Below, one piece after another: positions 3,961-29,080 of a stretch of 64,000 nucleotides of DNA. The stretch's first letter is position 1; the number at the start of each line of letters is the position of its first letter. The DNA lies in assembly GCA_027488375.1 (NCBI GenBank), contig JAIYBW010000010.1:113-64112 (forward strand), read 5' to 3'. The DNA is from Pseudomonadota bacterium (lineage in GTDB: Bacteria; Bdellovibrionota; Bacteriovoracia; Bacteriovoracales; Bacteriovoracaceae). Under the pieces are notes generated by a model, which did not search any database, was not told where the DNA came from, and was given only the letters and a program-made list of their open reading frames with translations. Position numbers and translations under genes: made by a program.

Positions 3961-4015
3961 GTAGTCCCTGACCTCCCACTCCCAACGTTGTTTAGAGTAG
4001 GAGGTCAGTAACTAC
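3961..4015. repeat. 55-nt conserved hairpin element, copy A
   Basis: GTAGTCCCTGACCTCCCACTCCCAACGTTGTTTAGAGTAGGAGGTCAGTAACTAC; 41/55 ungapped identity to 29026-29080 with compensatory stem changes. Confidence 0.8.
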
Positions 4016-4060
4016 ATTAAAAAGTAAAACAAAATAAGAAAGTAGCGAGGCGGGGAGAGA

Positions 4061-4204
4061 GAGATTTATGCCCAAAAAATTAAAGATCAAATTCCTAGGG
4101 TGCGTTTCGGTAGATCTGAGGAAATTGCAAACGTTGTAAATTTTCTTTTGAGTGAATCTGCATTATTTGTAAATGGAACATCAATACCGGTAGATGGAGG
4201 ATGA
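4061..4204 (+). pseudogene. C-terminal remnant of a short-chain dehydrogenase/reductase (FabG-like)
   Basis: EIYAQKIKDQIPRVRFGRSEEIANVVNFLLSESALFVNGTSIPVDGG* matches the SDR C-terminal signature (GR.G.PEEIA..V.FL.S....G..I.VDGG); no N-terminal part. Confidence 0.8.
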
Positions 4205-4509
4205 ACCCCTTCTCCATGAGAAAAAAGTGACATAATTTTCCTAGTCATCACAGATTCTTCAAAGGAGTGATAAAAATTTCTCAATTGTCCTTTCAAAATT
4301 CATAGAAAATATGAAGATCAAAAGATAAAAGCCATCAGCAAATTCAATTAGTTATAGCTATTTGAGGCGCTGCGCATTATAGCGTATTTTCCTTGTAAGA
4401 CTTTTCTATTAAAAATCAGAGTTTTTCGCTCTGAAATTTCTTCTCACCGACTAAAAAACTAGGTTTAATTTAGGGGCGTTTTATGAGGCGCAGAAATGAG
4501 ATTTAACTA

Positions 4510-5340
4510 TTGAGAACTTTTGCCTTCTTTCTAATTTTTTTCTGCCAAAATTTATTGGCCCAAGTGACTTATGAAGAGTCAGTTGAGGCTGCACGCACTA
4601 TTGGAACTTGGCTTTCAAAATCAACCGGTCATTACGATTTTTTATCAGCAACACCTGTCGGTCCAAAACGGGCCGGTAAAAAATTTTTCATCCGTGGTGC
4701 TCCAGACATGCAAACAGCATCTGATTATGGTGCCTCCTATATGCAAGTTACACGCGATCAAAATGTGACTTCGGCGTATGAGACTTTAGGTTTTGATACG
4801 AGCTCAATGACTAAGACGATTGATATGAATCGTTTTCATCTGGCCATAAATTTTGCCAACAGACATGATTTAAGTTTTAGTTATCTCACATCAATTGATG
4901 GAATTAAGGGATGGGGAGTTGGTTACAAGAGAGTACTCTTTAATTGGCGCTATTTTTATATTTCTCATCGAATGCAGTATGGCCGAGCAAAGCTAGATGA
5001 TTATTTTGAAAGTATAAATATCGATAATGATCTTTCACTTTCACTATATCTACGGCTCTTTGATATTTATGCTGGAGTTAAGCACTCCTTTGGGCAGGCA
5101 CAATTCAATGCTCCTTCTTCAAACTTAGAGCTCCCGACTGTTTATTATAGCAATGCTGTGAATGAACTAGATTATTTCTATGGAGCATGGGTTGCGACGT
5201 CAACTAATTCTCGCTTTGCTTTGCAGGTTAATAAATTCGGTGAAGAGTTCACCTACACGGGTAAATTTTCACTTTGGTTTGATTCTATTTTCCCAACAGC
5301 AAATAATTGGTTTAGAGATCCGAGGTACATCAAACAATGA
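4510..5340 (+). CDS. Putative outer-membrane beta-barrel protein
   Basis: Signal peptide; alternating aromatic/hydrophobic strands; stop overlaps the start of the next gene (ATGA). Confidence 0.6.
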   Translation: MRTFAFFLIFFCQNLLAQVTYEESVEAARTIGTWLSKSTGHYDFLSATPVGPKRAGKKFFIRGAPDMQTASDYGASYMQVTRDQNVTSAYETLGFDTSSMTKTIDMNRFHLAINFANRHDLSFSYLTSIDGIKGWGVGYKRVLFNWRYFYISHRMQYGRAKLDDYFESINIDNDLSLSLYLRLFDIYAGVKHSFGQAQFNAPSSNLELPTVYYSNAVNELDYFYGAWVATSTNSRFALQVNKFGEEFTYTGKFSLWFDSIFPTANNWFRDPRYIKQ

Positions 5341-8300
5341 TGAAACTTCTTAATCTCACCCTTTTCTTAAGTATTTATTTCTTGCTAAGTTCATGCAGTA
5401 AGAATGATTCTATGTTTGATCGCCCGATTCAAAAAGATCGAGGTCATATTAAGATAATCAACTCCGATGGTTTTTTAGGGGCCGTTACCGTTGATACGAC
5501 CCTTGATGTTGAACTTACTCTCAAGGCAACCGGTGGTCTTGGTGTCACCAATATTCAAAGTTCCCTAGTTACGAGCGATCCAATTACTTTTAAAGACGGC
5601 GTTTATCCAGGTACGGGTGGAACTTGTGCCACTGAACTTTCTTCCGGGCAAACATGTACAATAATTGTGACTTATGCTCCCACAAATTTAGCAAGTCATG
5701 CTGCCAGTTTGAATTTCACTTATTCAGACATAATAGGGAATTTGAGCTATAACTTTTCCATTAGTGCTGATTCAAACCCGATACTTACTTTTGAGTATGG
5801 CTCTCAATATGATTTCGGGAACAAATTTGTTGGGTCATCAACTGACCTTCGGATTCGTATATCAAATACGGGAAAAGTTAATGCTGAAAATTTAACTCTT
5901 AATAATTTATATGCGCCATTTTCCTACAAGGGTGGAACTTACCCTGGAGTTGGTGGATCATGTAGTAATCGAATTTTGATTGGCATGAGTTGTGATATTA
6001 TTATTAACTATTCGCCAACTGCAAATGGCCAACATCTTCAAGATATTAGTTTAAATTACTTGAATGCAGCAAGACCTGAATCGAATACTTTAAATCTTCT
6101 CGCTTGGGGATTTAATGAAGCTCAATTAATTCTTACCTCGGCAAATGGTGATAATTTTGGAACAGTTCCAAATAATAATAATAATACTAAAACCTTTACC
6201 ATCACACATTCTGGTGGAGATGTTGCTGCCAACCTCATTTCTCTTTCAACTTTACCGGCCCCTTTCTCTCGTGTTGGGGGGAGTTGTGGGACTGTTTTAA
6301 CCATTGATCAAGGTAGTTGCACTATTATAATTGCACTCAATTCAGCAACCTCTGGAACTTGGAATCACACTTTTAATTTAAGTTATTTTAATGGAACTTC
6401 TACCGTCACTTTATCAAAGACCATAACTGGAATTACTCGAGAGAGACCTGTGCTGAGTTTATCTCATAGTGGTACTTTTAACTTTGCTAATACAAAAATA
6501 AATCAAACCACAAACCAAACTTTTACTTTAACCTATGTCTCAGGAGAACTTGCAGCGACCGAAATATCTTTGGCCGGTTTTAGTGCACCTTTTAGCCGAA
6601 CAGGGGGGACTTGTACAACGACTCTTTCTTCAGGTTCTTGTACAATTATTCTAGGCTTTACTCCAACAACTTATAGTTCCTGGGGCCAATCCTTTAGCGT
6701 AAATTATAATAATACTATCTCGACCACGACTGCTGTTACTTTATCGATTAATGGCAAAAGTGAAGGAAGAATTAATCCGAATACCACGACACTTTCTTAC
6801 AGCAGTGTTGTGACGAATCAGACCAGAGAGTTAACACTTAGATTGGATTTTGTGGGTGGATCACCCGTAACAAATATCTCAACCCAATCGTTTTCTGGAC
6901 CTTATCAATACAGCACTGGCTCTTTCCCAGGCTCAACCAGTAATTCATCTCGTTGCACCACGAATCTTTCCGGTGGATCTTGCTACCTCTTCATTACATT
7001 TGCTCCTGTCACAGAGGGAACATATAACGGTCATACTCTTGTCTTGAATTATAATAATGGTGTCGATACATCTACAATTACGATTAGTCTTAGTGGAATT
7101 GGTTCTCCCGCTGCCAATCTAGGTGTTCAAGACAAGAATTATCCAGACACTCCAATGAATAGTGCTGGAGTTGGACCGAGTTTAGTTCGTGTAACAAACT
7201 CAAGCACTATGACTGCTTCCTCAATGTCTGTAGTACTTCCAACAGGTTTTTCTTACAGAGGAGGTACTTATCCTGGCCTATCTGGTAATTGTTCAAGTTC
7301 ACTAGCTGGCAATGGCTTTTGTAATCTCGATATTGTATTTACTCCATTAGCTTCAATAGCTTATGCAAGTACTTTAACAGTTAATTATCATGATGGAACA
7401 GTTTCTCGAAGTGCAACGTCAACTCTAACTGGAACAGGGATTACATCCAATGAACTTTATTTGTCTTTTTATGATCAGGTTACTTATGCAAATATTTTTG
7501 TAGGAAGAACGCCCTATGAGACAAAAATCATTAGGGTGGGGCATGGAGGATCTTCTACACCGGCCACAATATCATCACTAATAACCACATCCTCTGACTT
7601 CACTATTACTAATAATTCCTGTCCATCGGTCTTGAGTGGTGGAGCAACTTGTAATGTGACCGTTGCCTTCAGTCCTCAATCAGCAGGACTTAAAACATCA
7701 GCTCTTCAATTGATCTATGATTCTTTAGGTTTATCTTCGACCAAAACGCGAACCTTAACAGGAACCGGAGTTGCTCCTGCTGTGATTACGCCTTCTTCTT
7801 CTCCTCTAGCTTTTGGTTCTCGTCCTATAAATGCTTCCTATGATCTAGATCTTACTTTGACGAAGACAGGCTATAATATTTCTTCTCCTACAGGAACGAT
7901 TACGGGATCTGGATTTACTTTTAAAGGTGGATCCTATCCAGGTACTGGAGGTACTTGCCCAACAACTGGTTCTTTCCCAGCTAGTTGTAAGGTTGTGATC
8001 ACGTTTACACCGATCGCAATTGTAAATTATAACGGCACATTCACATTGAACTATAGTAACGGTTATCAAGTAGTGCCTCTGACAGTTTCACTTACGGGAT
8101 CTGGTTTTCCAACGGCAAGGCTCCTTTTTTCATCTTCCACTTATAGCTTTGGGCAAGTGATACAAACTCAAACTTCTGAGAGAACTTTGACCGTTACAAA
8201 TAATGGTGCTGCTCAGGCTTCAGCTTTGTCCTATTCAACTATTTCTGCTCCTTTTAGATATAAAGGGGGTAGCTTTCCAGGAACAGGTGGCACATGTTCA

Positions 8301-9206
8301 AATACTCTTAATATTTCTGGAAGCTGTGTCATTGTTTTAGAATTTGCACCTACTGCTGTAGCTGTTAGTTCTCAAACTCTAACGATCAGTTACCTGGATG
8401 GATACACCACATCTCAAACTTCAGCGACTATCACGGGTGAAGGCCTTGCTCAGGCAATCCTGAGTATATCTGATGGCAGTCCATATCAGTTTGGAACAGT
8501 GAATGTTGGTGCGAGCATCGATAAAAGCTTCACCATCACAAATTCTGGAAGTGTAAGTGGTACAACTATTACGGGAAGCTTTACGTCGGCTTTTTCTTTC
8601 AAAGGTGGAACTTTCCCTGGTACAGGGGGAACTTGTACAACCTCCCTTTCTGCCGGTGCAACATGTACTATTATCCTATCGTTTACTCCAACAGCAGCAA
8701 CAAGCTATTCTGGAAATTTCACACTAAATTACAATGATGGTTTAAGGCTACAAACAGAACTTAAAGAGCTACGAGGCACTGGAAGCCCAGCATTCTTAGG
8801 GGCAGGCATGATGAAGTTTGTGTCACCTTTGGGAGCGAATCTAAGTCAATTTAATAACTTCTCCTTTGCAGATAAAATTGAAACAGTTGATTTGAATAAG
8901 AATGGGTTCGAGGACGAATTAGAAAGCTTTATCCTACGCAATGAATCTCCTCGATTAGTTCTTCGTGGTCGGGAAGGACTTACTCAGAGGACGATTTACA
9001 AATTTCTTAATCATTTTCCAAATAATTACCATCAAGGCTTTAAAATTATAAAACTACAACGTGATTATAATCATGATGGAGTTAATGATATTTTGTTAGG
9101 GATATATAAAAATATGAACGGCAAGTTGAATCTTGTAGGCTACGACATCATTTGTCAGCGAAAAGGGCAAATTATTTTTCGCTATTTAAATGAAGGAGAT
9201 TTATAG
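5337..9206 (+). CDS. Large surface lipoprotein with about 10 Ig-like (choice-of-anchor-D/ASH-like) repeats
   Basis: Lipobox LSSC; ten roughly 110-aa Thr/Ser/Gly-rich repeats, each with a Cys pair (GG(T/S)(Y/F)PGTGGTC...C.I...F.P); C-terminal DxNxxG motifs (DLNKNG, DYNHDG). Confidence 0.8.
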   Translation: MMKLLNLTLFLSIYFLLSSCSKNDSMFDRPIQKDRGHIKIINSDGFLGAVTVDTTLDVELTLKATGGLGVTNIQSSLVTSDPITFKDGVYPGTGGTCATELSSGQTCTIIVTYAPTNLASHAASLNFTYSDIIGNLSYNFSISADSNPILTFEYGSQYDFGNKFVGSSTDLRIRISNTGKVNAENLTLNNLYAPFSYKGGTYPGVGGSCSNRILIGMSCDIIINYSPTANGQHLQDISLNYLNAARPESNTLNLLAWGFNEAQLILTSANGDNFGTVPNNNNNTKTFTITHSGGDVAANLISLSTLPAPFSRVGGSCGTVLTIDQGSCTIIIALNSATSGTWNHTFNLSYFNGTSTVTLSKTITGITRERPVLSLSHSGTFNFANTKINQTTNQTFTLTYVSGELAATEISLAGFSAPFSRTGGTCTTTLSSGSCTIILGFTPTTYSSWGQSFSVNYNNTISTTTAVTLSINGKSEGRINPNTTTLSYSSVVTNQTRELTLRLDFVGGSPVTNISTQSFSGPYQYSTGSFPGSTSNSSRCTTNLSGGSCYLFITFAPVTEGTYNGHTLVLNYNNGVDTSTITISLSGIGSPAANLGVQDKNYPDTPMNSAGVGPSLVRVTNSSTMTASSMSVVLPTGFSYRGGTYPGLSGNCSSSLAGNGFCNLDIVFTPLASIAYASTLTVNYHDGTVSRSATSTLTGTGITSNELYLSFYDQVTYANIFVGRTPYETKIIRVGHGGSSTPATISSLITTSSDFTITNNSCPSVLSGGATCNVTVAFSPQSAGLKTSALQLIYDSLGLSSTKTRTLTGTGVAPAVITPSSSPLAFGSRPINASYDLDLTLTKTGYNISSPTGTITGSGFTFKGGSYPGTGGTCPTTGSFPASCKVVITFTPIAIVNYNGTFTLNYSNGYQVVPLTVSLTGSGFPTARLLFSSSTYSFGQVIQTQTSERTLTVTNNGAAQASALSYSTISAPFRYKGGSFPGTGGTCSNTLNISGSCVIVLEFAPTAVAVSSQTLTISYLDGYTTSQTSATITGEGLAQAILSISDGSPYQFGTVNVGASIDKSFTITNSGSVSGTTITGSFTSAFSFKGGTFPGTGGTCTTSLSAGATCTIILSFTPTAATSYSGNFTLNYNDGLRLQTELKELRGTGSPAFLGAGMMKFVSPLGANLSQFNNFSFADKIETVDLNKNGFEDELESFILRNESPRLVLRGREGLTQRTIYKFLNHFPNNYHQGFKIIKLQRDYNHDGVNDILLGIYKNMNGKLNLVGYDIICQRKGQIIFRYLNEGDL

Positions 9207-12062: not shown

Positions 12063-13019
12063 TTAGGGTTTTACTATTCTACCGGAGGGTTGCGACACAT
12101 ACATACAATTTGCTGATTTCATACAAGCATAATCCCACATGCTTTGTTTACGATCCCACTCCCATGGGGCACTTTGATAATGATTGGCCGGACATGCAGG
12201 GAGATTACAATCCATATTTGTACGACTACAACGTTTAGAACTTTTCTGACATGTTACTTGACCATTTGCCTTATCTGCTGGTTTATTTACATTAAGTGTT
12301 CCAGTGTTAGTAAGCCATAATTGAATTAATTCGGAGGATTGGATCGCATTTGGCAAATCACATTTTTTTGTCACTTCATTCCAAATAGCTCCAGCAATTT
12401 TTTCACAAGAAATTTTCACTGAATTTAGTGGATCAAAATAACAAGTTTCAATTACATTAGCATTCAGTTTCACAACAAGAGGTAAATCGAGATTTTTTTC
12501 CGTCGCACCCAAGCCTCGGATATTGAGATTTTTGGGTGTGCCAGTTGCATTAATGGAGCCCGCGCGATAAAAAATTCTTACGACATCTTGATTGGGGCCA
12601 GTGACATAAGCATTTGTAGCATTATCAAAATAGATGAAGGGTCTGCTCAAAATTTGCATCCTATCAACGTAAATGGCATTTGAATTAGGAGTACGAATAC
12701 CAAAGAGTTTACTGCCTCGGATAATTTGATTGTTTAGGTTTAAATTTCCTTTAAAAATACCATCATTAAGAGATAGTTCTGTTGGTGCAGCTAATGTTCC
12801 GATTGTTTTTCCGGCAAATGAAGCAGAACAATTTAGAATATCAGACAAATCTGAACGTATGACACTAGAAATGCTTTCTAGATTTTGATCAAAGTTGTTT
12901 TTTATTTTAATTTTATTATCAACATCTCCCTGTTGCATAATGGTATAGGAAATACCTGCAACACCAGCTAAGGCAATCATAATTTGAATTAAGCCAATAC
13001 CCCGCTGGCCATGTTTCAT
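12063..13019 (-). CDS. Pilin/pseudopilin-like protein (Gln at +5) with Cys-rich C-terminal domain
   Basis: QRG|IGLIQIMIALAGVAGI class III signal; C-terminus nearly identical to that of 13016-13939. Confidence 0.75.
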   Translation of the reverse strand: MKHGQRGIGLIQIMIALAGVAGISYTIMQQGDVDNKIKIKNNFDQNLESISSVIRSDLSDILNCSASFAGKTIGTLAAPTELSLNDGIFKGNLNLNNQIIRGSKLFGIRTPNSNAIYVDRMQILSRPFIYFDNATNAYVTGPNQDVVRIFYRAGSINATGTPKNLNIRGLGATEKNLDLPLVVKLNANVIETCYFDPLNSVKISCEKIAGAIWNEVTKKCDLPNAIQSSELIQLWLTNTGTLNVNKPADKANGQVTCQKSSKRCSRTNMDCNLPACPANHYQSAPWEWDRKQSMWDYACMKSANCMYVSQPSGRIVKP

Positions 13020-13939
13020 GGTTTAACCATCCATCCTGCGGGTTGAGACATATACATACAATTTGCAGACTTCATACATGCATAATCCCACATGCTTTGC
13101 TTACGGTCCCACTCCCAGGCAGAGCTCTGGTAATGATTCGATGGACATGCGGGCAGTGAGCAATCCATATTAGTTCGACTACAGCGCTTAGAGCTCTTTT
13201 GGCAAGTAACTTGGCCATTGGCCGCATCTGCAGGTTTAGTTGAAGTTAAGTTTCCATCTTTGGTGAGCCACAATTTAACTAAATCTCCCCTTAAGACAAT
13301 CTCACTAATATTACAGGTTTGAGTGTTTTGATCCCAAATCCCACCAGGGAGGGATAAACATGAAGATGCAAGAAGATTAGTTATTTCAGACTGACATCCA
13401 AGAACTGTATCTCCTCCGTTGTCGCGAGGAGAGAGGAGGATATCTTTGCTGTAGTTCTCCCCACCTAACATTTCTTTTAATCTTATTTGACCATCAGCAG
13501 TTATATTTCCTGGTTTGAAAGTTATACGAAGAACTTTTCTATTATCAATTGGTCTACGAATAAGATGAATAGAATCAATAAAGACACCGGTAGAATTTTC
13601 AGATTTCACCTTGAATAGTAGACCATTATCTTTAACTTCAGGTGGGGTCGTTGCTAAATCTAATCGCCCTCGTCGGATCTCATTTATAATTGTTGGTGAA
13701 CTGGCAGTACCATATGTCTTTGGACTTGGGAGGGCGAGAGTTGCAGTACAATTTTCAGATCTAGATAGTTCAGTCTGGATTGAGTTAAAAAGAGAATTAA
13801 CTTGCTGATTAAATACAGCTTTAGCTTGTTGTTTGGCACTCATGTCTGATTGAGTATACATCACATAGCTTAAGGCTCCCATTAGACCAACGGAAACCAT
13901 TGTTTCAACAAGACTGAATCCTGATTGCTTAAATTTCAT
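13016..13939 (-). CDS. Pilin/pseudopilin-like protein (Glu at +5) with Cys-rich C-terminal domain
   Basis: QSG|FSLVETMVSVGLMG prepilin motif; ATGA overlap with the downstream paralog. Confidence 0.8.
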   Translation of the reverse strand: MKFKQSGFSLVETMVSVGLMGALSYVMYTQSDMSAKQQAKAVFNQQVNSLFNSIQTELSRSENCTATLALPSPKTYGTASSPTIINEIRRGRLDLATTPPEVKDNGLLFKVKSENSTGVFIDSIHLIRRPIDNRKVLRITFKPGNITADGQIRLKEMLGGENYSKDILLSPRDNGGDTVLGCQSEITNLLASSCLSLPGGIWDQNTQTCNISEIVLRGDLVKLWLTKDGNLTSTKPADAANGQVTCQKSSKRCSRTNMDCSLPACPSNHYQSSAWEWDRKQSMWDYACMKSANCMYMSQPAGWMVKP

Positions 13940-14070: not shown

Positions 14071-15147
14071 ATGTTTATAATCATTAAATTACAAAATGGC
14101 TCAAAACTAGAGAGTTCATTTAAAAAAAATTCTATAACCATAGGACGCTCTTCGAGAGCTGACCTAGTCATTCATGATGATGCCTTATCCAGATTTCATG
14201 CCCAAATAGATTACGAAAATGGTCAATATTATGTAACAGATCTATCAAGTGCAAACGGTGTTTTTATTGATGACCAGAAAATTTTACCAAATGAAAAGAC
14301 TCATTTTGCCCCATATAGGGCCCTCAATATTGGCCCTCTAGAATGCACAATTCAAGATGAACTAGAGTTAGATCAACCTATTCTTTTAAAGAGTGAATTA
14401 TCTAAAACTCAAAAAAATCAACCTGAGCCACCGAAAGAAAAAATCCAAATCACTCGTCATGCTTCAAAAAATAAAAAAGAAGACAGAAAAGGAAGTCTTG
14501 ATCCCAAAGTCGTGTTCGCAGTTATTTTAATTATTTTTGGTGTCTACCAATTTTTAATCGGTGATGATTATGTTCCGACACCATCAGTTGAAAATCAAGC
14601 AAACCCAGCGACCAATTCTCCATCGAGTCAAATTCGTAAAATTTATCGTGCTAGAGTCCCAGATGAAAATACAATTTCAGATATATACTTGAATCATTTT
14701 TCGCAAAAATCATGTGCTAGGATGAATGATTTATGTAAGCAACTACAAATTGAAGAAAATAGTTATGAGGGATTGTTTAAAAATCAGTATGAACTATTTA
14801 TCTTCATTAAACCAAGCAAGCTTTTTAATCAGCCTCGCCTATCAGTTTTAAAAGATCAAATTAATGCAGAGGATTTTCTTGGACATTACCTTGTAATGGG
14901 ATCAGAAGTTTTGCAGTTACTTTTAAAACATGAAGTGGATCAAATTCATTTAGTTGTTGTTTCTGCAAACAATCACCCAATTCGCGCGTATAGGTATCAC
15001 ATTTCTCGATTTGAAAATGGAGAAGTAGATCCTCCAGGGCTTTTAGATGCCATGTCTGCAGGTATTCAATCCCAGCAAATAAAAGATGTGGCTGTTAATC
15101 TTTTAAAAATTTTCCCGCCATTGCATTTGAACCCGATTCAAAACTAA
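14071..15147 (+). CDS. FHA-domain membrane protein
   Basis: ITIGRSSRADLVI..D.LSRFHA and DLSSANGVF FHA motifs, followed by one TM segment. Confidence 0.85.
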   Translation: MFIIIKLQNGSKLESSFKKNSITIGRSSRADLVIHDDALSRFHAQIDYENGQYYVTDLSSANGVFIDDQKILPNEKTHFAPYRALNIGPLECTIQDELELDQPILLKSELSKTQKNQPEPPKEKIQITRHASKNKKEDRKGSLDPKVVFAVILIIFGVYQFLIGDDYVPTPSVENQANPATNSPSSQIRKIYRARVPDENTISDIYLNHFSQKSCARMNDLCKQLQIEENSYEGLFKNQYELFIFIKPSKLFNQPRLSVLKDQINAEDFLGHYLVMGSEVLQLLLKHEVDQIHLVVVSANNHPIRAYRYHISRFENGEVDPPGLLDAMSAGIQSQQIKDVAVNLLKIFPPLHLNPIQN

Positions 15148-15165
15148 GCATAATTTTAAATGTGT

Positions 15166-15918
15166 TTAATTTATTTTTCGAGGCTTCTTTTTGTTATTAT
15201 TAATATTGATTCTCACTCCTACATTCACCATGTGAGTTGTTCTTGAAGGAGTATGGAGATTCATATAGCCTGCGTTAAATGCAATCGGGGTATTCCCAAT
15301 CGTTGTTTGATGTTCTATTCCCAAATAAAGACGATTTTGATCATATCCTCTTTGCCCGGCCCATTGAGTCTGATTTAGACGTAGGAAGACTTCATCTTGA
15401 AAGATCAGAGAAAGTTTATAGTTTTTATTTTGAATCAACGGGATCGCTAATCTAAGGCTCTGTCTCAATCTTAAATTAAGATCATCATAGTCTTCTAAAA
15501 TTCTCTCCTCAAGACGAGTTGACGATAGAAAAAGCACTGGAGAATTTAAAACTTTTCCTTTAATGGTGATCATTTGAAAGAGACGTTGCTCATTTACAAT
15601 TTCTCCTTGGCGATCTTGAGTAATGAGAGCATAGCCAACCCAGAGAGTTTGATTTTCATCCAAATTGTACCCAAGCATAGGTCTTAGTAAAAATTGAGAG
15701 AAATCTTGGGCATCATTTTTTAATCGGTAATGCCACTCAATAGAATAAGGGAATTTAGTCTGATTACTTTCCATCTTACTCTGCTCATCGAGCACTCCAT
15801 CAACACGAACCCAGCTCCAAAGAGTATTGTCTGGGTTATCTTGTGAGAAAGCGAGATTGGTGAATGTAAAGATTAAAGATAAATTGAGGATAATTAATTT
15901 TAATAATTTTATTTTCAT
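15166..15918 (-). CDS. DUF2490-family outer-membrane beta-barrel
   Basis: Signal peptide; LLRPMLGY, NEQRLFQ, RLEER, LRLRQ, DEVF, DQNRLYLG pattern. Confidence 0.75.
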   Translation of the reverse strand: MKIKLLKLIILNLSLIFTFTNLAFSQDNPDNTLWSWVRVDGVLDEQSKMESNQTKFPYSIEWHYRLKNDAQDFSQFLLRPMLGYNLDENQTLWVGYALITQDRQGEIVNEQRLFQMITIKGKVLNSPVLFLSSTRLEERILEDYDDLNLRLRQSLRLAIPLIQNKNYKLSLIFQDEVFLRLNQTQWAGQRGYDQNRLYLGIEHQTTIGNTPIAFNAGYMNLHTPSRTTHMVNVGVRININNNKKKPRKIN

Positions 15919-16048
15919 AGAGTGATTTTATCTTGATTTTAAAAAAATGTGTGATGAATTGAAAATTTTACATTCTTATGATTTTCTATTCGACATCTAA
16001 AATTATGGGGAAGGATTTTTTGAATTATTAAAGGTTAGTACAAAAGTA

Positions 16049-16819
16049 CTAACCTTTAACACTGTTGTTAGCTGAGACTTCTGTATTCTTAGTGGAGATA
16101 CTCATGTATGTCATAAAAGCAGACAGTGCGAGAGCAATATAAAATGCTTTAAAGCCTAGATGTGGGAAAACGAATGCAGAAATAAAGGCACCAACTGAAA
16201 AGGAAATTAAAGTAAAAATTCTGTGGATATTAATTTCTCTCGCTTCTTTTAATCTTACATTTTTGTGTTTAGGAAAAAGTGTACCCACTAAATGGAGACC
16301 TATATCGGTTGATAGTCCCGTTAAATGAGTGACTCTTATTTTCCCAAATGTAGTCCAGGTGATAAGACTATTTTTTAGGCCACAGATAAGGCATAAAAGT
16401 GCAATGACTGAAAATTCCATAAATTGATAGATATTATCAGCATCAAAGGGTTGAGCATTTGAAACCAGACCACTCTCTTCAATAAGAATAACAACAAGTA
16501 ATAGTAATGTAATGAGACCCTGGATTAGGTGATAGGGTGGATGATTATCCTTTTTGGGACCTGCTTCTAGGACTATTGATGTGATGACACCACCCAAGAT
16601 AAAAAATCCTGGAACAACAAGTAGTTCAGCTCCAAAGAAAAAATCACTATGACCCATAGCAATTCCAACTTGTGTACCAAAACCTGTTACATGGGATACA
16701 AATTTTCCCGTAATTAAGAAGCCAGCCGAATTGATGAATCCTGCCTTAAATGCAGACAGGAGCCATAAAAACATTTTATCTTTCTTGTATACCTCAGCAA
16801 CATTTTCACAGTGAATCAT
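16049..16819 (-). CDS. YoaK/DUF1275 membrane protein
   Basis: AGFINSAGF, FVSHVTG, GLKNS, THLTGLSTDIG motifs; multiple TM segments. Confidence 0.8.
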   Translation of the reverse strand: MIHCENVAEVYKKDKMFLWLLSAFKAGFINSAGFLITGKFVSHVTGFGTQVGIAMGHSDFFFGAELLVVPGFFILGGVITSIVLEAGPKKDNHPPYHLIQGLITLLLLVVILIEESGLVSNAQPFDADNIYQFMEFSVIALLCLICGLKNSLITWTTFGKIRVTHLTGLSTDIGLHLVGTLFPKHKNVRLKEAREINIHRIFTLISFSVGAFISAFVFPHLGFKAFYIALALSAFMTYMSISTKNTEVSANNSVKG

Positions 16820-16831
16820 GTAGACTCCTCA

Positions 16832-17452
16832 TTAGGCATCAAGGAATTCAACAATACCTGTAGAGATGTCATAAAGGGCTCCAACTATTTTGATTTCACC
16901 TTTATAATTCATTTCTTCCAATATTGATGAACGAGATTTTAAGTCAGAAACACCCATAAGAATATTCTCTCTTGTCACGTGTGAGCACATGTCGTTTTCA
17001 CTCGCATTTGGATACTTTGCCTTGAGAGACGGAATACACCGCTGAACCTTGTGAGTAATGAAATGTAAGTGACCGAGGTCAACATTTGCAATAGAACCTT
17101 TAATGGCTCCACAACCGGTATGCCCCATAACCACAATAACTTTTGCCCCAACGACCTTGCAACCAAACTCAGCACTTCCTAGTATATCTTCGTTTATGAC
17201 ATTCCCAGCAATTCGGATACTGAAAACGTCACCAAGTCCTTGGTCAAAAATTAACTCAGCCGATGTTCTAGAATCCATACAGCTAATAATGACTGCAAAG
17301 GGATGCTGTCCATCAGACGTTTCATTCACCTGTTGGAGAAGATTTCTATTTAATTTTAGATTATTTACAAAGCGTGCGTTCCCATCTCGAAGTAGTGTAA
17401 CTGCTGCTTCTGGGCTTATTTTATTTTGCATGTCTTTAGTAAGTGTTCTCAT
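16832..17452 (-). CDS. Beta-class carbonic anhydrase
   Basis: Zn ligands CMDSR and HTGCGA; start moved to the ATG at 17452 (GAGG RBS); ORF track starts at 17485. Confidence 0.92.
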   Translation of the reverse strand: MRTLTKDMQNKISPEAAVTLLRDGNARFVNNLKLNRNLLQQVNETSDGQHPFAVIISCMDSRTSAELIFDQGLGDVFSIRIAGNVINEDILGSAEFGCKVVGAKVIVVMGHTGCGAIKGSIANVDLGHLHFITHKVQRCIPSLKAKYPNASENDMCSHVTRENILMGVSDLKSRSSILEEMNYKGEIKIVGALYDISTGIVEFLDA

Positions 17453-24283: not shown

Positions 24284-24290
24284 GTTTCTT

Positions 24291-24318: not shown

Positions 24319-24330
24319 TTTACTTTACTT

Positions 24331-25500
24331 TTAACAATCCTCTGAGCACACACAAACAGCTGAAGCTCCACCCTTTAGATCCTTACCTCTGGAAAAATCT
24401 CTCATAAGCTCTGTTAAGTTATTTAGAGCTTTATCGGTGCGTAAGTTGTAGTAGATAGATTTACAAACTTTTAGGTGAACAGCTCCAGGGTTCATAAATG
24501 CCCTTACTTCCTTCGTTTGTAAATATCGCTCAGGTTCAATCTCTGGAATAATAGATAAGATTTCCGTTTGATGATTTTTCAATTCTTTTAGAGTAGGGTA
24601 GCGCCAATTTTTCCCGAATGCTTCGCAGCCGACTTGAGAATCTGATACCGTTCCACTCGATTTTTGAGCAAAACATTTATTATAGTCCTCACCACCAATC
24701 TCAGTTGGTACTTCTGATGCCAGCTGGGATAAGTCCGATGTCCCAAACTTAGATCTATCAGTCGTCAAAACTGCTATTTTTAAACCAGAAGATAGTGATT
24801 GCGGGAGACCTTTTCGCTTATTTTCTTTTACTAATGCCGTTTTCATTAAAGCATTTAAAAAATTAGGTTTACCACTAATAAAGTATTGGATCCCTGATTC
24901 AAAACATTCTGTTTTTGAAGACATGCTTCGACAATTTCTCCACTCAAAATCCTCAAAATTGTAAGCCCATGTTTGGGAGAAATTTTTTGTTCTTCCTCCA
25001 CTCAATGTTTCATCTAATTCTCGGAGGACAGCATCCACCGTTTCTTTTCCCAAAACTAAATATTTTATAGCGTACTCTGCATCTCTTACTTTAATTTTAG
25101 CTTCAGTAATATAATTTTTTAGAGATTCTGCAGCAGATGGATCCTTAATGGTTAGATCTTTGACTACTTTTTCACGGTTTGCGACTTCTCGTTGATGTTT
25201 TTTCAATACTGATTGTGATTCTTTAAGTACTGATTCATAATTCTCAAACTTAACATCTTTCCTTCTCCATATCTTTTCTTGTAGATACGATTTCAATTCT
25301 CGCTCATGACCAATATTGATCTGCGCTGTACAGCGAGAAAAGTTTTCGTAGCAGAGCTTTAAAATTATTTCTTTTTTCTCGTTGAGATTTATTGAATAAG
25401 GATGAGTGCCACTAAAACGATAGTCAGCAAAAGCTGAGAGAGAAAGTGATGAAAGGATAAGTGCAGTCTTTAGACCCATAAGAAGTACTCCCAAATTCAA
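24331..25500 (-). CDS. Secreted coiled-coil protein with a C-terminal DUF1566/Lcl-like motif
   Basis: Signal peptide (start may be the second Met); CEAFGKNWRYPTLKEL resembles the C...WRLPT..EL motif. Confidence 0.6.
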   Translation of the reverse strand: MNLGVLLMGLKTALILSSLSLSAFADYRFSGTHPYSINLNEKKEIILKLCYENFSRCTAQINIGHERELKSYLQEKIWRRKDVKFENYESVLKESQSVLKKHQREVANREKVVKDLTIKDPSAAESLKNYITEAKIKVRDAEYAIKYLVLGKETVDAVLRELDETLSGGRTKNFSQTWAYNFEDFEWRNCRSMSSKTECFESGIQYFISGKPNFLNALMKTALVKENKRKGLPQSLSSGLKIAVLTTDRSKFGTSDLSQLASEVPTEIGGEDYNKCFAQKSSGTVSDSQVGCEAFGKNWRYPTLKELKNHQTEILSIIPEIEPERYLQTKEVRAFMNPGAVHLKVCKSIYYNLRTDKALNNLTELMRDFSRGKDLKGGASAVCVCSEDC

Positions 25501-25570
25501 TTTTGGAAGTACTCTAACATCTGTTAACCAAGACTGATGAAACTATGTAAAGATTACAAGTTTTCTGGAT

Positions 25571-27586
25571 TTAAAACTGGTAAGTACCACCCAAGTAAAC
25601 ATTTCTCCCCATGGCCCAAGCAATCCCATCTGACCTCACTCGAGAATAATACTGTCGGTCGAGCAAGTTATTGATACCACCATTTAAGAGCCAGTTTTCT
25701 TTTAATTTATAGTCCATAGTGGCGTCAAAAACGACATAAGACGGGATTTCAAAGTTATCTGTATTTCCGTCATCCCCGAAATGGCGACTAACCATGACAC
25801 CCATCAGGGCAGCTTTAATTTTATTTTCTTTGTTATAGATAATGCCAGTTCTTGTCAGCGTATTAGGAGCATACTGAGGAGTTTTATCTTTTAATGTCCC
25901 CTGAGTGAATTTTGCATTAAGGATTTCGACATTACCAAAGAGATTGAAATCTCCTATACCTTTCAGCTCAGCAGAAAGATCGAGACCCTTGCTCTCACCA
26001 GCTCCAGTATTTTGATAAACATTTCCGACCTGTCCAAATTTATTTTCATAGCGAATAAAAAAGACAGATGCATCCCAATTGAGTTTCTGACTTTGACCTC
26101 GGTAACCCAGTTCGTAGGTAATAATTTTTGAAGGATCAATATCTTCAGAAATGGCCGTTGTAGTAACCGGTACAGATTCTGCATAGGTTACTGGCTTATA
26201 GGCCTCAGAGATGTTGGCATAAATTTGTGACTCATCAGAAAGGTGATAAGAGGATCCTATACCAAATAAAGGAACATTAACCGTGTTATCCTCGTACCTA
26301 AGATCGGTAGCTGGATTTCTCTTTCTTTCATCAATAGTCTGACGAATATTCTCGACTCGAACACCGGGAGTAATAAGAAAATTACCAAAGCCAAATCTAT
26401 TCTCTACATAGATTGAATTTGTACGAGTGACTCTTTCAAATCGTTTAGTTACCTCTCCATGATTGGAATCTACAGCCTCACCAGACTCGCCAACATAGGG
26501 TGATAAGAGATTATAATTTAAATAACCGGCTGAAAGAGTATTTGAACCGTAGTTTTTTAGATAACGAAGATCGACATTATATCCATAATAATTTTGAGTT
26601 ACTATTGTATTAGTTGATCCAGTAGGGAAAGTGCCAAAGCCGCCACCATCCTGAGTTTTTGAATACCGTCTATAGGCCGTGCCCCACAAACTCAAGCTAA
26701 GTTGAGAAGTGGCATCTATTTTTCTTTCTAAAACACCAGCTAGTTGAGCTCGTGAAACTTTCAACCGGTCATGCTTTCGACTGGCGCGTCGCTGATCATC
26801 ACCATAGGGGTTTGTTCCCAATGATTCGTTTTTACTAAAGCCACCAGGATTCCCATGATCTGAGTTGTAACCATTAAAAGAAATTTTTAAAACAGTATCA
26901 TCTAAATAGTAATGCTGTCTTGCTTGCAAATAATCAGCATAGAAATCTGCATTTTGTCGCTGAATTCCATCACCCTGACGTCGATGATACTCAACTCCGT
27001 AGCTTCTATTATCCTTATGTCCATAGATCGCATTATTCGTTGTTAATAAATTATATGATCCACCACTAAAACCCACTTTGCCTGAAGTGGGTTGATTTTT
27101 CTGTATCGGATTGGAGATATAATTAAGGGCACCACCGGGCTGAGGGCCATAAAGAAGAGAGGCACCACCTCGTATGAATTGAACCCTGTCCATCATGGGA
27201 AGCGCAGGGGAGAAGTAGTGGGCCGGATAACCATACATATCGGCCGCAACAGGAATCCCATCTTGGAGCATGAGAATATTATATGACTCATGAGGATCTC
27301 CCAAACCACGATAGGTCAGGGCCGCAAGAGATTCGTTGGGAACTTCAGAAATAAGTAAACCCGGAGTTTGAGATGTGGCCTGACGATAATTATTGGTCTG
27401 AAGTTGAGGTATTTCTTTTAAAGAAGTAACTGTATTTTTCTTCCCAGAGTAAATTTGAGTTTGCTTATTTTCTTCCCAAAATTCTGAGACTCCAGGGGTG
27501 CCGTACTCAATGACTTCAACTTTTTGTAATTCATCCTGGGCCCACAGACTCAATGAAAAAAATAGCGTAAGTATCAGAAATCTCAT
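25571..27586 (-). CDS. TonB-dependent receptor (FecA-like)
   Basis: Signal peptide, plug motifs QDGIPV and RGGASLLYGPQPGGALNY, terminal YLGGTYQF. Confidence 0.9.
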   Translation of the reverse strand: MRFLILTLFFSLSLWAQDELQKVEVIEYGTPGVSEFWEENKQTQIYSGKKNTVTSLKEIPQLQTNNYRQATSQTPGLLISEVPNESLAALTYRGLGDPHESYNILMLQDGIPVAADMYGYPAHYFSPALPMMDRVQFIRGGASLLYGPQPGGALNYISNPIQKNQPTSGKVGFSGGSYNLLTTNNAIYGHKDNRSYGVEYHRRQGDGIQRQNADFYADYLQARQHYYLDDTVLKISFNGYNSDHGNPGGFSKNESLGTNPYGDDQRRASRKHDRLKVSRAQLAGVLERKIDATSQLSLSLWGTAYRRYSKTQDGGGFGTFPTGSTNTIVTQNYYGYNVDLRYLKNYGSNTLSAGYLNYNLLSPYVGESGEAVDSNHGEVTKRFERVTRTNSIYVENRFGFGNFLITPGVRVENIRQTIDERKRNPATDLRYEDNTVNVPLFGIGSSYHLSDESQIYANISEAYKPVTYAESVPVTTTAISEDIDPSKIITYELGYRGQSQKLNWDASVFFIRYENKFGQVGNVYQNTGAGESKGLDLSAELKGIGDFNLFGNVEILNAKFTQGTLKDKTPQYAPNTLTRTGIIYNKENKIKAALMGVMVSRHFGDDGNTDNFEIPSYVVFDATMDYKLKENWLLNGGINNLLDRQYYSRVRSDGIAWAMGRNVYLGGTYQF

Positions 27587-27635
27587 GACGGAACCACCCT
27601 GTTCAGCTTGATATCTTTTTGTTTGATATATTAAA

Positions 27636-27654
27636 CAGGGTGATTATAATTGTC
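27636..27654 (-). promoter_or_regulatory. Possible Fur box
   Basis: GACAATTATAATCACCCTG matches 13/19 of GATAATGATAATCATTATC, overlaps a TATAAT, 50 bp upstream of the TonB receptor. Confidence 0.45.
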
Positions 27655-27787
27655 GAGAAATTTAGATCATTTACCTACAAGCTACTGTTATTGATTGATC
27701 AAAGCCTTTAAGTCGTTTGGATTAGGTGCCTCATACATTTTTGGATTATCTATAAGTTCTCAAAATTTAGTCAAAAGTAGAGAATTC

Positions 27788-27815
27788 TCAAGTAAAAAGG
27801 TCTATTAACCGAAAA
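27788..27815 (+). promoter_or_regulatory. Sigma28/FliA-like promoter
   Basis: TCAAGTAA-N12-ACCGAAAA upstream of 27860. Confidence 0.4.
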
Positions 27816-27859
27816 GGGAGAATTAGTTTTAACCAAATCCAATGATACAGAGGGCGGTT

Positions 27860-28243
27860 ATGAAAAAAATCTCATTGGGCTTCGTTCTAGTTCTAGGCAG
27901 TACGAACGTGATGGCAGCTTGTAATTATCACTACAGTTTAAATTCTCTTCAATATAACTGCCAAATTCAAAAAGTTGGCGGAACAGAAATCGAGCAATTC
28001 GCTGCTGATTGCGACTGTGAGAGGTCTGCCAAGCAACATGCAGATGGGGACGAAGCACCAGTTCATGCTGTGTCTGATTTAACATGTAAGCAGTCTTGGG
28101 TGAACATTAATAATTCTTCTAAACCTGATTCTGACTTTCACCAATTTGTGGTTAAAACCTATCTTAAAAATGTACCGATCACAGCTAATACTGCTTTAAG
28201 AACAAGATATTTAAAAGTTAGAAAATCAAAGTGCTCTAATTGA
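27860..28243 (+). CDS. Secreted Cys-rich hypothetical protein
   Basis: MKKISLGFVLVLGSTNVMA signal peptide; 6 Cys. Confidence 0.7.
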   Translation: MKKISLGFVLVLGSTNVMAACNYHYSLNSLQYNCQIQKVGGTEIEQFAADCDCERSAKQHADGDEAPVHAVSDLTCKQSWVNINNSSKPDSDFHQFVVKTYLKNVPITANTALRTRYLKVRKSKCSN

Positions 28244-28851
28244 AAAAAAATTCTTCCAAGACTTTTATCTTATGCCTGATTACAATTGGGATCTCACTAG
28301 GACTCTACAATTCTCTTGTCATCAATGATGAATCTATCGTGGGTATTGAGAATGTTTCTTTTAATAAAAGACTAGATGAAATTCTGGGCCGGACCGTCGA
28401 AGGTCGAACTCCTGCCTCAGAGGTAATTACTCTTCGTAACCCGGCCCGAGAGCTGATTCCTCATGAAGTTATTTTTGAGAAAAAAATAATAGAAACTGAA
28501 AAGACAAACCCTGAGCCCTTAATTGAAACAGTTCCTCCAAATATAAAAGATAGTCTTAACCTCAAATTATTTCAGATTATTTCAAAGCAGGACCCCCAAG
28601 AAGCTATGACCGAAAATATTCAGGGAAATATTGTGGTCCAAAATGGTGTGATTGAAATTTTAACAGTTACATTTCATGATGGGGAATCCCTCAATCTTGA
28701 GAGTCTTTCTTTAAATGCCAATCGATTTGAATACAACTATGGAGGAGAAGTTTTTTACGGGATGTTTTATCATACGGATGAACATCACTACATCGTCAAG
28801 TTCACAAATGGGCCTTTTGGAAATTATCAACTCATTTTTAAGAAAGAATAA
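28240..28851 (+). CDS. Membrane-anchored hypothetical protein
   Basis: N-terminal TM, RTPAS motif, beta-rich C-terminus; overlaps the upstream stop. Confidence 0.65.
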   Translation: MKKNSSKTFILCLITIGISLGLYNSLVINDESIVGIENVSFNKRLDEILGRTVEGRTPASEVITLRNPARELIPHEVIFEKKIIETEKTNPEPLIETVPPNIKDSLNLKLFQIISKQDPQEAMTENIQGNIVVQNGVIEILTVTFHDGESLNLESLSLNANRFEYNYGGEVFYGMFYHTDEHHYIVKFTNGPFGNYQLIFKKE

Positions 28852-28924
28852 ATATTTATTAATTTATAGTGAACTTTTTAAAAACAGAACAGCATTCAAA
28901 CACTAATAAGCTAAGAATAGGTGA

Positions 28925-28973
28925 TTGGACTTGGACTGGACTTTGGTTGGACTTTATTGGATTTCGTCGGACT
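28925..28973 (+). repeat. Degenerate tandem TTGGAC(T) repeats
   Basis: Six GGA(C/T) cores at 28927, 28933, 28938, 28949, 28959 and 28969, just upstream of hairpin copy B. Confidence 0.6.
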
Positions 28974-29025
28974 TCATCTTCCCTGCTTCTTTACAAGTTA
29001 TGGGAATTAATAATGAATTTTCAAC

Positions 29026-29080
29026 CTAATCGCTGACCTCTAACTCCCAACGTAGTTTGGAATCAGAGGTCAGCGATTAG
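29026..29080. repeat. 55-nt conserved hairpin element, copy B
   Basis: CTAATCGCTGACCTCT-23 nt-AGAGGTCAGCGATTAG perfect 16-bp stem; same length and loop core (ACTCCCAACGT.GTTT.GA) as 3961-4015. Confidence 0.85.

Follow-up and report, generated by a model that had tools for sequence, protein, structure and literature searches.

Two related hairpins on a plasmid of a Bacteriovoracaceae bacterium are very probably conjugative transfer origins (oriTs) of the MOBC type, the kind known from pAD1 and pAM373. Each now appears to be an orphan, copy A as a result of gene loss. This assignment follows from membership of a relaxase-linked family, likeness to pAM373, the lack of a relaxase on the plasmid and the retention of the relevant genes in a sister genome. 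The oriT unit itself, in all probability, consists of a multi-tier inverted repeat of approximately 140-170 nt with a sequence-conserved apex and an adjoining array of short direct repeats. The elements are most likely a predicted addition to a known kind of oriT and not a new RNA.

Two hairpins on a circular plasmid

The window, the 64,000-nucleotide stretch that was analysed, belongs to a circular plasmid of approximately 64.4 kb (contig C9, with an exact 119-nt terminal overlap). The plasmid has its own replication and partition genes (Table 1), the DnaB being 43% identical to that of a second dnaB on contig C8. Along the circle, copies A and B lie 25.1 kb apart in one direction and 39.4 kb apart in the other.

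Table 1. Positions of the two elements and associated features in the window
Feature	Position	Strand	Remarks
Copy A central hairpin	3961..4015	-	Core CTGACCTCC...GGAGGTCAG, 3968-4008; apex triloop 3987-3989
Copy A whole multi-tier inverted repeat, ~155 nt	3909..4063	-	From folding
Copy A phased short-repeat array, n=6	3851..3908	+	GA[GA]A[ACT] at 3851, 3862, 3873, 3883, 3893, 3903
Copy B central hairpin	29026..29080	-	Core 29033-29073; apex 29052-29054
Copy B whole inverted repeat, probable extent	28973..29126	-	Sequence reading and folds; weaker than copy A
Copy B TTGGAC(T)-like direct-repeat array	28906..28975	+	78-147 nt from apex
Junction relative to sister genome G012	3829..3919		91 nt in window; 2.5 kb in G012
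Truncated short-chain dehydrogenase, C-terminal fragment, 47 codons	4061..4202	+	From translation; abuts copy A
ParA gene	44818-45696		Same circular replicon as both copies
RepA-like initiator and DnaB paralogue (plasmid replication)	56221..59068	+	From Pfam

The initial annotation described two 55-nt hairpins and this is borne out: they align without gaps and share 41 of 55 positions (75%). A degenerate 41-nt core pattern matches only copies A and B, both in the window, where shuffled sequences predict no match, and across the 3.2-Mb genome. The three compensatory pair changes between the copies (G-C to C-G, G-C to A-T and C-G to T-A) are likewise present. Both hairpins are far more stable than shuffled sequences, with folding z-scores of -6.7 to -10.3. 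The minus strand forms a 22-bp stem that includes G·T/G·U wobbles and ends in a loop of 3 nt, and what had been taken for a conserved loop is the inner stem of this fold. In copy A the 22 pairs, G·T wobbles included, are contiguous and contain ACGTTG-N9-GGTCAG; in copy B all but one of the stem positions are paired (-38.8 kcal/mol). The covariance model built for the family, R1, scores 80.5 bits on the minus strand of copy A (3948-4028) versus 45.3 bits on the plus strand, and 80.1 versus 48.3 bits for copy B (29013-29093).

Outer pyrimidine/purine arms had also been proposed. Those of copy A pair (3909-3926 with 4047-4063) and enclose internal loops, a middle stem and the core hairpin. Those of copy B are weaker and ambiguous; candidate arms at 28973-28984 and 29115-29126 form 10 of 12 pairs, with 29150-29158 as an alternative partner. 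The GGGAATT motif lies upstream of both copies, at 7-13 nt in A and 17-23 nt in B and not at the 15-25 nt first given. The short upstream repeats are real. Six motifs near copy A, 85-137 nt from the hairpin apex, follow one another in 10-11-nt steps, the sole such chain on either strand of the window and one produced by 0 of 20 000 shuffles, for a motif chosen post hoc; they are candidate relaxase-binding direct repeats. The copy B array is detected by TRF with periods of 6 and 11 (28922-28961), and no second array of this type occurs in the genome or the retrieved loci.

The copies had been read as direct repeats flanking a 25-kb block of cargo, which would make them the ends of a transposable or site-specific recombination unit (a MITE, an HUH-transposon hairpin or att-like sites). 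They are directly oriented and the plasmid has a tyrosine recombinase gene (42199-43227), located outside the 25-kb segment between them. We nevertheless judge this reading extremely improbable. At 75% identity the copies are diverged, their flanks and repeat arrays are unrelated, each has a separate history and the replicon is circular. Neither an HUH nor a transposase gene is present among the plasmid ORFs scanned. ORFs of 276 and 1289 aa within the segment are syntenic in relatives that lack the element, and family members elsewhere occur as single copies next to a relaxase gene.

A relaxase-linked family and its favoured strand

Model R1 finds the element in 73 of 151 genomes of the family Bacteriovoracaceae and in 90 of 251 of the phylum. 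An alignment of 14 sequences is 88.8% paired, and compensatory changes affect 21 of 34 pairs, a level that 0 of 500 shuffles reach; the covariation, for which a check had been suggested, is strong. The end of a relaxase-like ORF lies 40-170 nt from the apex in 33 of 40 loci. The same placement is seen in all 21 further loci, among them every one of the 18 from named Bacteriovoracaceae/Bdellovibrionota MAGs that match the core exactly. The element is almost always placed just past the relaxase stop codon with the gene for a VirD4-type coupling protein (T4CP) upstream, the order being T4CP, relaxase, element, a 124-148-aa gene, SSB, HTH_17 and integrase, with SSB, Xis and Int among the downstream genes.

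The relaxase matches PF13814 (Replic_Relax) at 31 bits, a family that corresponds to MOBC (PMC5357655). Its N-terminus gives a sub-threshold match to MarR (18.8 bits, cut-off 24.6) and the protein matches NCBIfam MobC_subf far below the curated cut-off of 200 bits. Invariant residues comprise H, PD and ExE..K, and a profile containing the pAM373 relaxase is matched in hhalign at 93.4%. On these comparisons the element-linked protein is a predicted MOBC relaxase, combining a winged helix-turn-helix with a PD-(D/E)XK nuclease.

In 46 distinct copies, G·T oppositions number 118 versus 13 for A·C, and of 14 copies for which both strands were folded, 13 favour the strand equivalent to the window minus strand; the inner stem of the sense strand has A·C mismatches where the other has wobbles. 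As the covariance model partly rewards G·U pairs, this bias is not fully independent of the strand calling. The independent check is relaxase orientation: the favoured strand opposes the relaxase-like ORF in 35 of the 35 loci that have one, and is antisense to all flanking operon genes.

A sense-transcript signal located after the relaxase gene and before the next one, be it a terminator, an attenuator, an RNase III site or an RBS-sequestering hairpin, would suit the position between co-oriented genes in relatives, the GGAGG in the 3' arm with its complementary CCTCC in the 5' arm, and the purine-rich runs, noted earlier and seen past both window copies, that precede an ATG. We consider it very improbable, given that the sense strand is the less favoured one and that the hairpin is not trailed by a U-run. 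Past the window copies lie unconserved ORFs of 3 and 23 codons, and where the relaxase belongs to the 278-aa clade its ORF itself extends into the flank of the repeat.

One of the two alternatives in the initial annotation was an unrecognised structured ncRNA. On the minus strand such an RNA would be antisense to the mobilisation operon and could regulate the relaxase or downstream genes. The G·U-compatible wobbles, the strong covariation and the fold z-scores all agree with this, but a DNA hairpin predicts covariation and G·T wobble equally well. The suggested Rfam scan placed the element in no known family at the gathering threshold, with only generic miRNA-hairpin matches far below it. On neither strand is there a promoter-like site upstream or a terminator past the main hairpin, and the orphan copies retain the element with no operon to regulate. 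The closest characterised homologue is a DNA site, and we regard an RNA as distinctly unlikely.

Comparison with enterococcal transfer origins

That homologue is found in the Enterococcus plasmid pAM373, where the best match of the family model (14421-14499, E 1.8e-7) sits between the T4CP and relaxase genes. The match falls within a two-tier inverted repeat of 142 bp, with five 12-nt direct repeats after it, and is the inverted repeat in the region of that plasmid's reported oriT. The score owes much to both being long hairpins, the specific shared letters amounting to 12-15 positions. Common to both is CTGACC...ACGTTG-N9-GGTCAG, which is carried by the strand opposite to the tra genes, and E. 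faecium plasmids share an identical ACGTTGAGAG-N5-GGTCA with three of our loci (L006, L008 and L009). CloDF13, the other studied MOBC system, gave no match.

In pAD1 the oriT is placed between ORF53 and ORF57 (PMC3084688), and TraX binds five direct repeats located 70-120 bp from nic (PMC12857230). The elements resemble pAD1 oriT2 and the pAM373 oriT (relaxase TraX/Orf8) in several ways. The inverted repeat is large, with two or three tiers, and measures 142 bp in pAM373 and about 155 nt in the present case. Five to six short direct repeats, with a spacing close to the helical repeat, lie 70-150 nt from its centre, and the neighbouring genes encode a Replic_Relax (MOBC) relaxase and a VirD4-type coupling protein. 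The position of the copy A array relative to the inverted repeat matches that of the pAM373 direct repeats. A further likeness is that the direct repeats vary between otherwise similar origins (PMC12857230). There are differences. The hosts are Bdellovibrionota as opposed to Bacillota, and the gene order is not the same: here the relaxase comes after T4CP and before the repeats and inverted repeat, whereas pAM373 has T4CP, repeats, inverted repeat, small ORFs and, last, the relaxase. The apex is a 3-nt loop here, while the enterococcal one contains an extra GGGG/CCCC mini-hairpin of ~20 nt; conserved G·T wobbles occur in the present stems, while those of pAM373 pair perfectly. Unlike pAD1 and pAM373, the replicon of the window copies encodes no relaxase.

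An ssDNA site other than the nick region, either an sso/ssi priming site or an Frpo-like promoter, would act on the transferred strand in the recipient and may share the repeat with an oriT. Like ssoA-type sso and F Frpo, the element is a long imperfect one-strand hairpin with a sequence-conserved apex region, and a strongly strand-specific fold is expected of ssDNA-only sites. A gene set that includes SSB comes directly after it, and the core of the element is kept across very divergent relaxase clades (22% identity), which could mean that a host enzyme reads it. This reading is unlikely however. The stems contain no promoter-like hexamers, there is no sigma-70-like -35/-10 pair in or near them, and the element is tied to a relaxase gene and not a Rep gene. 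The homologous repeat of pAM373 is within the reported oriT region (PMC3084688), and a nick in the element, with transfer of the favoured strand, would bring in the SSB genes last and not first.

Orphan copies and their history

No relaxase or coupling-protein gene is encoded on the ~64.4-kb plasmid, on which Rep, DnaB and ParA are present. Window copies that are MOBC-type oriTs would therefore act only in trans, if at all. Relaxase-like ORFs in the source genome are confined to a second plasmid, C4, and a chromosomal contig, C7. These provide candidate helpers; each has a relaxase-linked copy of the element (C4:59440-59740 and C7:229696-229772) and C7 also has a VirB4 gene (237972-238430) ~8 kb from its copy. 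The direct repeats of every resident oriT differ from those of A and B and point to no cognate relaxase.

By analogy with the enterococcal systems, a MOBC relaxase (N-terminal winged helix, C-terminal PD-(D/E)XK) would dock on the direct repeats and one strand of the inverted repeat, probably the window minus strand, antisense to transfer genes, would extrude as a hairpin. The nick would fall within the inverted repeat and a VirD4-type coupling protein would pass the strand to a type IV secretion system. Francia and Clewell in 2002 and Francia et al. in 2013 reportedly described an inverted repeat in pAD1 with the nick inside it. Both copies may be active at present. Of the earlier proposal of an ssDNA hairpin for an HUH enzyme or recombinase, the strand-specific DNA hairpin cut by an enzyme survives, the predicted enzyme family being MOBC instead.

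Relaxase-less pOriT plasmids and iOriT genomic islands carry an oriT only (PMC11389934; bioRxiv 10.64898/2026.01.13.699239). The window plasmid is similar, with putative oriTs, no relaxase, coupling protein or mating-pore genes, and co-resident elements that encode them. Small E. faecium plasmids bearing an orphan pAM373-type repeat offer a direct parallel. The window plasmid differs from pOriT plasmids and iOriT islands in having two diverged copies, and no helper was found whose direct repeats match.

The sister genome G012 (locus L065) retains coupling protein and relaxase genes beside the orthologue of copy A, an element in oriT position on contig C112 to which copy A is 82% identical over 137 nt. 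Window 3159-3828 aligns with L065 4903-4236, and 3920-4056 with L065 1705-1569; the G012 genes at the junction specify a 517-aa coupling protein and a MOBC-like relaxase of 241 aa. From this alignment copy A appears to have been orphaned by loss of its own coupling-protein and relaxase genes. The copy A repeat array is not homologous to the matching stretch in G012. Copy B occupies a variable spot among the relatives compared. The short-chain dehydrogenase fragment next to copy A lacks the N-terminal part, an orthologue was not found at that place in relatives, and the truncated gene is a sign of rearrangement on the far side of copy A.

A strand-specific hairpin family

The hairpin described in the initial annotation is present twice in the window, at 3961-4015 (copy A) and 29026-29080 (copy B). 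The copies align without gaps at 41 of 55 positions and display the three compensatory pair changes named there. In the window, a degenerate 41-nt core pattern hits the two copies and nothing else, with no hit expected by chance, and it has no further sites in the whole 3.2-Mb genome, which carries just five diverged copies of the element.

Folding of both strands changes the interpretation of the apex. The plus strand gives a hairpin with a 23-nt 'loop', whereas on the minus strand this region pairs through G·U/G·T wobbles, so that 22 uninterrupted base pairs are closed by a 3-nt loop. The minus-strand fold has an energy of -34.3 kcal/mol in copy A and -38.8 kcal/mol in copy B, compared with -27.6 and -31.1 kcal/mol for the plus-strand fold. 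What had been taken for a conserved loop is the inner stem of a strand-specific hairpin, and the GGGAGU of a proposed AUUCCC/GGGAGU pseudoknot is already stem-paired on the favoured strand. The outer pyrimidine/purine stem suggested for both copies holds for copy A, with 3909-3926 and 4047-4063 enclosing the hairpin, but the pairing is weaker at copy B. The copies have in common with origins of transfer (oriT) of the MOBC relaxase class (pAD1 oriT2, pAM373 oriT), where it measures about 140 bp, a large inverted repeat with the potential to form a long hairpin.

BLAST detects the core in at least 10 genomes of the same genus. The outer stems of relatives are unrelated in sequence between loci, yet complementary inside each locus. 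The covariation anticipated in homologues is found in an alignment of 14 family sequences with a 34-pair helix: 88.8% is paired, 21 of the 34 pairs have changed on both sides, and none of the pairing and covariation measures was reached by shuffled alignments (0/500). A covariance model built from the family, R1, has matches in 73 of 151 genomes of the taxonomic family (41 of 69 genera) and in 90 of 251 genomes of the phylum (59 of 142 genera). The exact core occurs on only 18 contigs when one genome per species is searched (approximately 185,000 species), all labelled as Bacteriovoracaceae, Bacteriovorax, Bdellovibrio or Oligoflexia MAGs.

Across 46 distinct copies the modelled strand shows 118 G·T oppositions, distributed over 21 pair positions, as opposed to 13 A·C, which represent G·T on the other strand. 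We infer that the excess is compatible with either selection on the fold or deamination of an often single-stranded strand; both readings point to the tra-antisense strand as the one processed. One core-stem T·G wobble (alignment columns 30/66) is kept in 37 of the 46 copies, perhaps because it is used in recognition and not as drift that is tolerated.

Does the hairpin function as RNA or DNA? An antisense non-coding RNA would fit the wobble bias, but there is no promoter, terminator or Rfam support for it and we regard this reading, which the initial annotation had favoured in part, as very unlikely. At the gathering thresholds of Rfam 15 the window has no match, so that no known family is assigned. 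An E-value threshold returns only eukaryotic miRNA-precursor models, scoring 23-36 bits where their gathering scores are 63-150, and these are generic long-hairpin matches. Scans found no promoter at the hairpins and, in line with the earlier argument against a plain terminator, no terminator-like site at either central hairpin. A GC-rich hairpin followed directly by a T/U run is absent; the plus strand continues with an A-rich run and the minus strand with CTCCAAAA/GTTGAAAA. A signal in sense-strand mRNA is disfavoured by the strand bias and is highly improbable. A single-strand priming site or promoter, which could coexist with an oriT, is unlikely; a simple duplex-sequence scan for a Frpo-like promoter gave no sigma-70-like pair, although such a scan would miss single-strand promoters with mismatches as well as unknown sso types. 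The hairpin appears to act at the DNA level.

Relaxase genes and similarity to Enterococcus origins of transfer

In relatives, an ORF of 240-280 amino acids ends 40-170 nt from the hairpin apex in 33 of 40 loci, and in all 35 loci having such an ORF it occupies the strand opposite the favoured fold. A relaxase-like ORF lies beside the element in 21 of 21 further loci, comprising 18 exact-core matches, some of which overlap genomes of the first set, and three from other families. Upstream of this ORF is a gene for a VirD4-type coupling protein (T4CP; TraG-D_C, TrwB_AAD_bind and TraD models). Past the element is a gene for a 124-148-aa protein that has no Pfam or NCBIfam match; it usually starts 50-110 nt away, ahead of SSB, and its product may be a relaxosome accessory protein. 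Genes for SSB, an HTH_17 excisionase-like protein and an integrase also lie on this side.

Sequence comparisons identify the 240-280-aa ORF as a predicted MOBC relaxase. One clade passes the Pfam cut-off for Replic_Relax (PF13814), which CONJscan equates with MOBC (PMC5357655). The same clade has an N-terminal MarR-like match below threshold (18.8 bits, cut-off 24.6); MOBC relaxases are PD-(D/E)XK enzymes with a winged helix at the N-terminus (PMC12857230). The relaxase-like ORFs carry the invariant residues H, PD and ExE..K and match NCBIfam MobC_subf weakly. Profile-profile alignment of a divergent clade with a profile that includes the relaxases of pAM373 and of E. faecalis ATCC 29212 gives 93.4% probability. 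Of the earlier proposal of a single-stranded DNA hairpin recognised by a recombinase or HUH enzyme, the strand-specific DNA hairpin probably stands and the HUH enzyme does not, the enzyme of the relatives being of the PD-(D/E)XK type. Hairpin sites of HUH enzymes (IS200/IS605 ends, REP/RAYT, RCR dso) were rejected, there being five diverged copies in the genome and not many near-identical ones, and no HUH domain was found among the ORFs scanned on contig C9, the source of the window. DGR, retron and integron attC identities were likewise discarded: the differences between copies are not confined to A, neither a reverse transcriptase nor an integron integrase is encoded close by, and AAC/GTT is at the apex rather than the ends.

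To our knowledge very few MOBC origins are experimentally defined (pAD1/pAM373 and CloDF13) and none has been described in Bdellovibrionota. Searched without filters, the whole of the Enterococcus plasmid pAM373 (36.8 kb) gives its best R1 match at 14421-14499 (27.8 bits, E 1.8e-7), between the T4CP gene (14650-16863) and the relaxase gene (13007-13792). In this region a two-tier inverted repeat of 142 bp is succeeded by five direct repeats of 12 nt each (14551-14625). This layout agrees with that said to have been described by Francia and Clewell (2002), reportedly an inverted repeat of about 140 bp beside short direct repeats, with the nick within the inverted repeat. Two published statements fit it as well: the direct repeats bound by TraX number five and lie 70-120 bp from nic (PMC12857230), and the oriT of pAD1 is situated between ORF53 and ORF57 (PMC3084688).

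The element family resembles the characterised inverted-repeat core of pAM373 in sequence: both have CTGACC…ACGTTG-N9-GGTCAG, read antisense to the tra genes. In pAM373, ACGTTG-N9-GGTCA occurs once, in the oriT repeat, with the orientation to the tra genes that it has in the family; in 40 normalised loci it is found in the tra-antisense orientation at 10 and in the opposite orientation at none. The E. faecium plasmids have ACGTTGAGAG-N5-GGTCA, identical in three loci (L006, L008, L009). CloDF13, the second studied MOBC plasmid, has no R1 match.

Short direct repeats, a candidate relaxase-binding site, adjoin the inverted repeat at both copies, in keeping with the degenerate tandem repeats first noted there. 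The chain of six motifs at copy A is the only one in the window and did not arise in 20000 shuffles (0/20000), with the caveat that the motif was picked post hoc. The arrays of copies A and B are unlike each other; those of pAD1 and pAM373 are reported to differ likewise. In many relatives, AAATG-type repeats with an 11-12-nt period separate the relaxase stop codon from the inverted repeat. In a clade with 278-aa relaxases the ORF reaches as far as the hairpin, and tandem repeats were not seen. A conserved inverted repeat, TGCTCACC-N8-10-GGTGAGCA, falls within the last relaxase codons of this clade and may substitute for direct repeats as the candidate binding site.

Features of the two hairpin copies, their plasmid and related loci
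Feature	Location	Strand	Details
Copy A inverted repeat	3909-4063		Outer, middle and core stems (folding)
Copy B inverted repeat			22-bp core stem and weaker outer stem (folding)
Copy A array	3851-3903		Six phased GA[GA]A[ACT] motifs, 10-11-nt steps
Copy B array	28906-28975		TTGGAC(T) repeats
Short-chain dehydrogenase (SDR) remnant, C-terminal	4061-4202	+	47 codons, ending …FGRSEEIANVVNFLLSESALFVNGTSIPVDGG and stop
RepA-like protein gene	C9		PF10134, 26.4 bits, slightly below cut-off
DnaB paralogue gene	C9		Other dnaB on contig C8
ParA, tyrosine recombinase and menaquinone-pathway genes	C9		Menaquinone operon
pAM373 inverted-repeat arms	14392-14409/14516-14533 and 14422-14446/14474-14498
124-148-aa protein gene	L009:998-1444 and homologues	-
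124-148-aa protein gene, same genome	C4:59110-59439
124-148-aa protein gene, same genome	C7:229288-229572
TGCTCACC/GGTGAGCA repeat	~90-110 nt from apex		L007, L010, L011, L013, L025, L028, L037, L052

Orphan status and history of the two copies

In both contig C9 and contig C4 the two ends overlap exactly over 119 nt, as is usual for circular contigs; the C9 circle measures 64,449 bp and that of C4 72,983 bp. On C9 the plasmid dnaB (57728-59068) has its final 64 codons repeated, with 67% identity, approximately 3 kb downstream (62241-62432). C4 encodes a Rep homologue, ParA, an integrase, a T4CP and a MOBC-like relaxase together with its own oriT copy, and is probably a mobilisable plasmid of the same host bin. 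Relaxase-like ORFs in this genome are confined to C4:59739-60500, C7:362544-363443 and C7:229891-230661, each with its own copy of the element; a VirB4 gene is at C7:237972-238430. On C9 no relaxase-like or T4CP-like ORF was found, nor did a Pfam scan detect a relaxase, coupling protein or T4SS domain among the ORFs scanned. An adjacent relaxase gene accompanies most family loci, the three other copies in the genome and the copy-A orthologue in the sister genome G012, whereas copies A and B have neither an adjacent MOBC relaxase nor a T4CP gene and are thus orphan members of the family.

We consider it likely that both copies are orphan MOBC-type oriTs, the best-supported reading. As such they would be predicted, by analogy, to be nicked by a relaxase in a strand- and site-specific manner and to support mobilisation in cis. 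Neither shows a sign of decay: pairing is complete in both, and each retains the apex motif and a repeat array.

The copies have separate histories. G012 conserves the copy-A flank (window 3159-3828) and the element (3920-4056), both at 78-82%. The window has 91 nt between them; the 2.5 kb found at this point in G012 codes for a coupling protein of 517 aa and a relaxase of 241 aa, which indicates that copy A has lost its own mobilisation genes. On the side opposite the lost genes, copy A directly adjoins the SDR remnant, which lacks its N-terminal part. An unlisted 38-codon lipoprotein-like ORF (3629-3745, minus strand), with a signal peptide, cysteine and good RBS, lies between a 126-aa ORF and copy A, inside the flank that aligns to G012 at 78%.

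Copy B lies between convergent genes, where G012 has 4.3 kb of unrelated genes without the element, and no orthologue was found among 45 congeners. The variable spot (window 28852-29560; G012:C53, L066 2356-6724) falls between a 203-aa ORF and an RRM-protein gene. In the window its 0.7 kb holds copy B and an 85-aa secreted-protein ORF; in G012 it holds secreted proteins and an HTH/nucleotidyltransferase pair.

Genes between the two copies are syntenic in relatives without the element. This synteny and the separate histories of copies A and B led to rejection of the idea, as first supposed, that they bracket a mobile 25-kb unit. A transposon or att-type bracket is disfavoured by the same synteny and is hardly credible. 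On the circle the copies are 25,065 and 39,384 bp apart; the 39.4-kb arc contains the replicon and the 25.1-kb arc does not.

Possible mobilisation in trans and wider occurrence

What is new is a computationally defined MOBC oriT family in Bdellovibrionota, with a core common to Enterococcus and orphan copies on a relaxase-less plasmid; no new class of RNA or enzyme is revealed. The family spans about one third of the sampled genomes of the phylum and is open to testing. Its short common core could sharpen prediction of MOBC oriTs, and the strand-specific wobble signature tells which strand folds. C9 clearly exemplifies plasmids that lack a relaxase but carry orphan origins, consistent with recent work on oriT-only 'hitcher' elements.

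That the orphan origins are active, and that the 64-kb Rep/Par plasmid is mobilised purely in trans by MOBC relaxases of a co-resident plasmid or ICE, is a tentative suggestion that we find rather doubtful. If true, a menaquinone-operon plasmid of a predatory-bacterium lineage would be moved by the MOBC relaxases of helpers only. Given the direct orientation of the copies, transfer starting at one origin and terminating at the second could move sub-circles or resolve them. Under this reading, the conservation of G·T wobbles on one strand would imply that PD-(D/E)XK (MOBC) relaxases act on an extruded single-strand hairpin. No covalent DNA intermediate is known for the MOBC family.

Orphan MOBC origins occur in Enterococcus also, as the E. 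faecium plasmids L077 (NZ_CP085915.1, 4.4 kb) and L076 (NZ_CP092572.1, 12.4 kb) have the pAM373-type oriT repeat without a MOBC relaxase. Their typing is 'non-mobilizable' in one case and MOBP in the second; plasmids of this sort may be wrongly classed as non-mobilisable.
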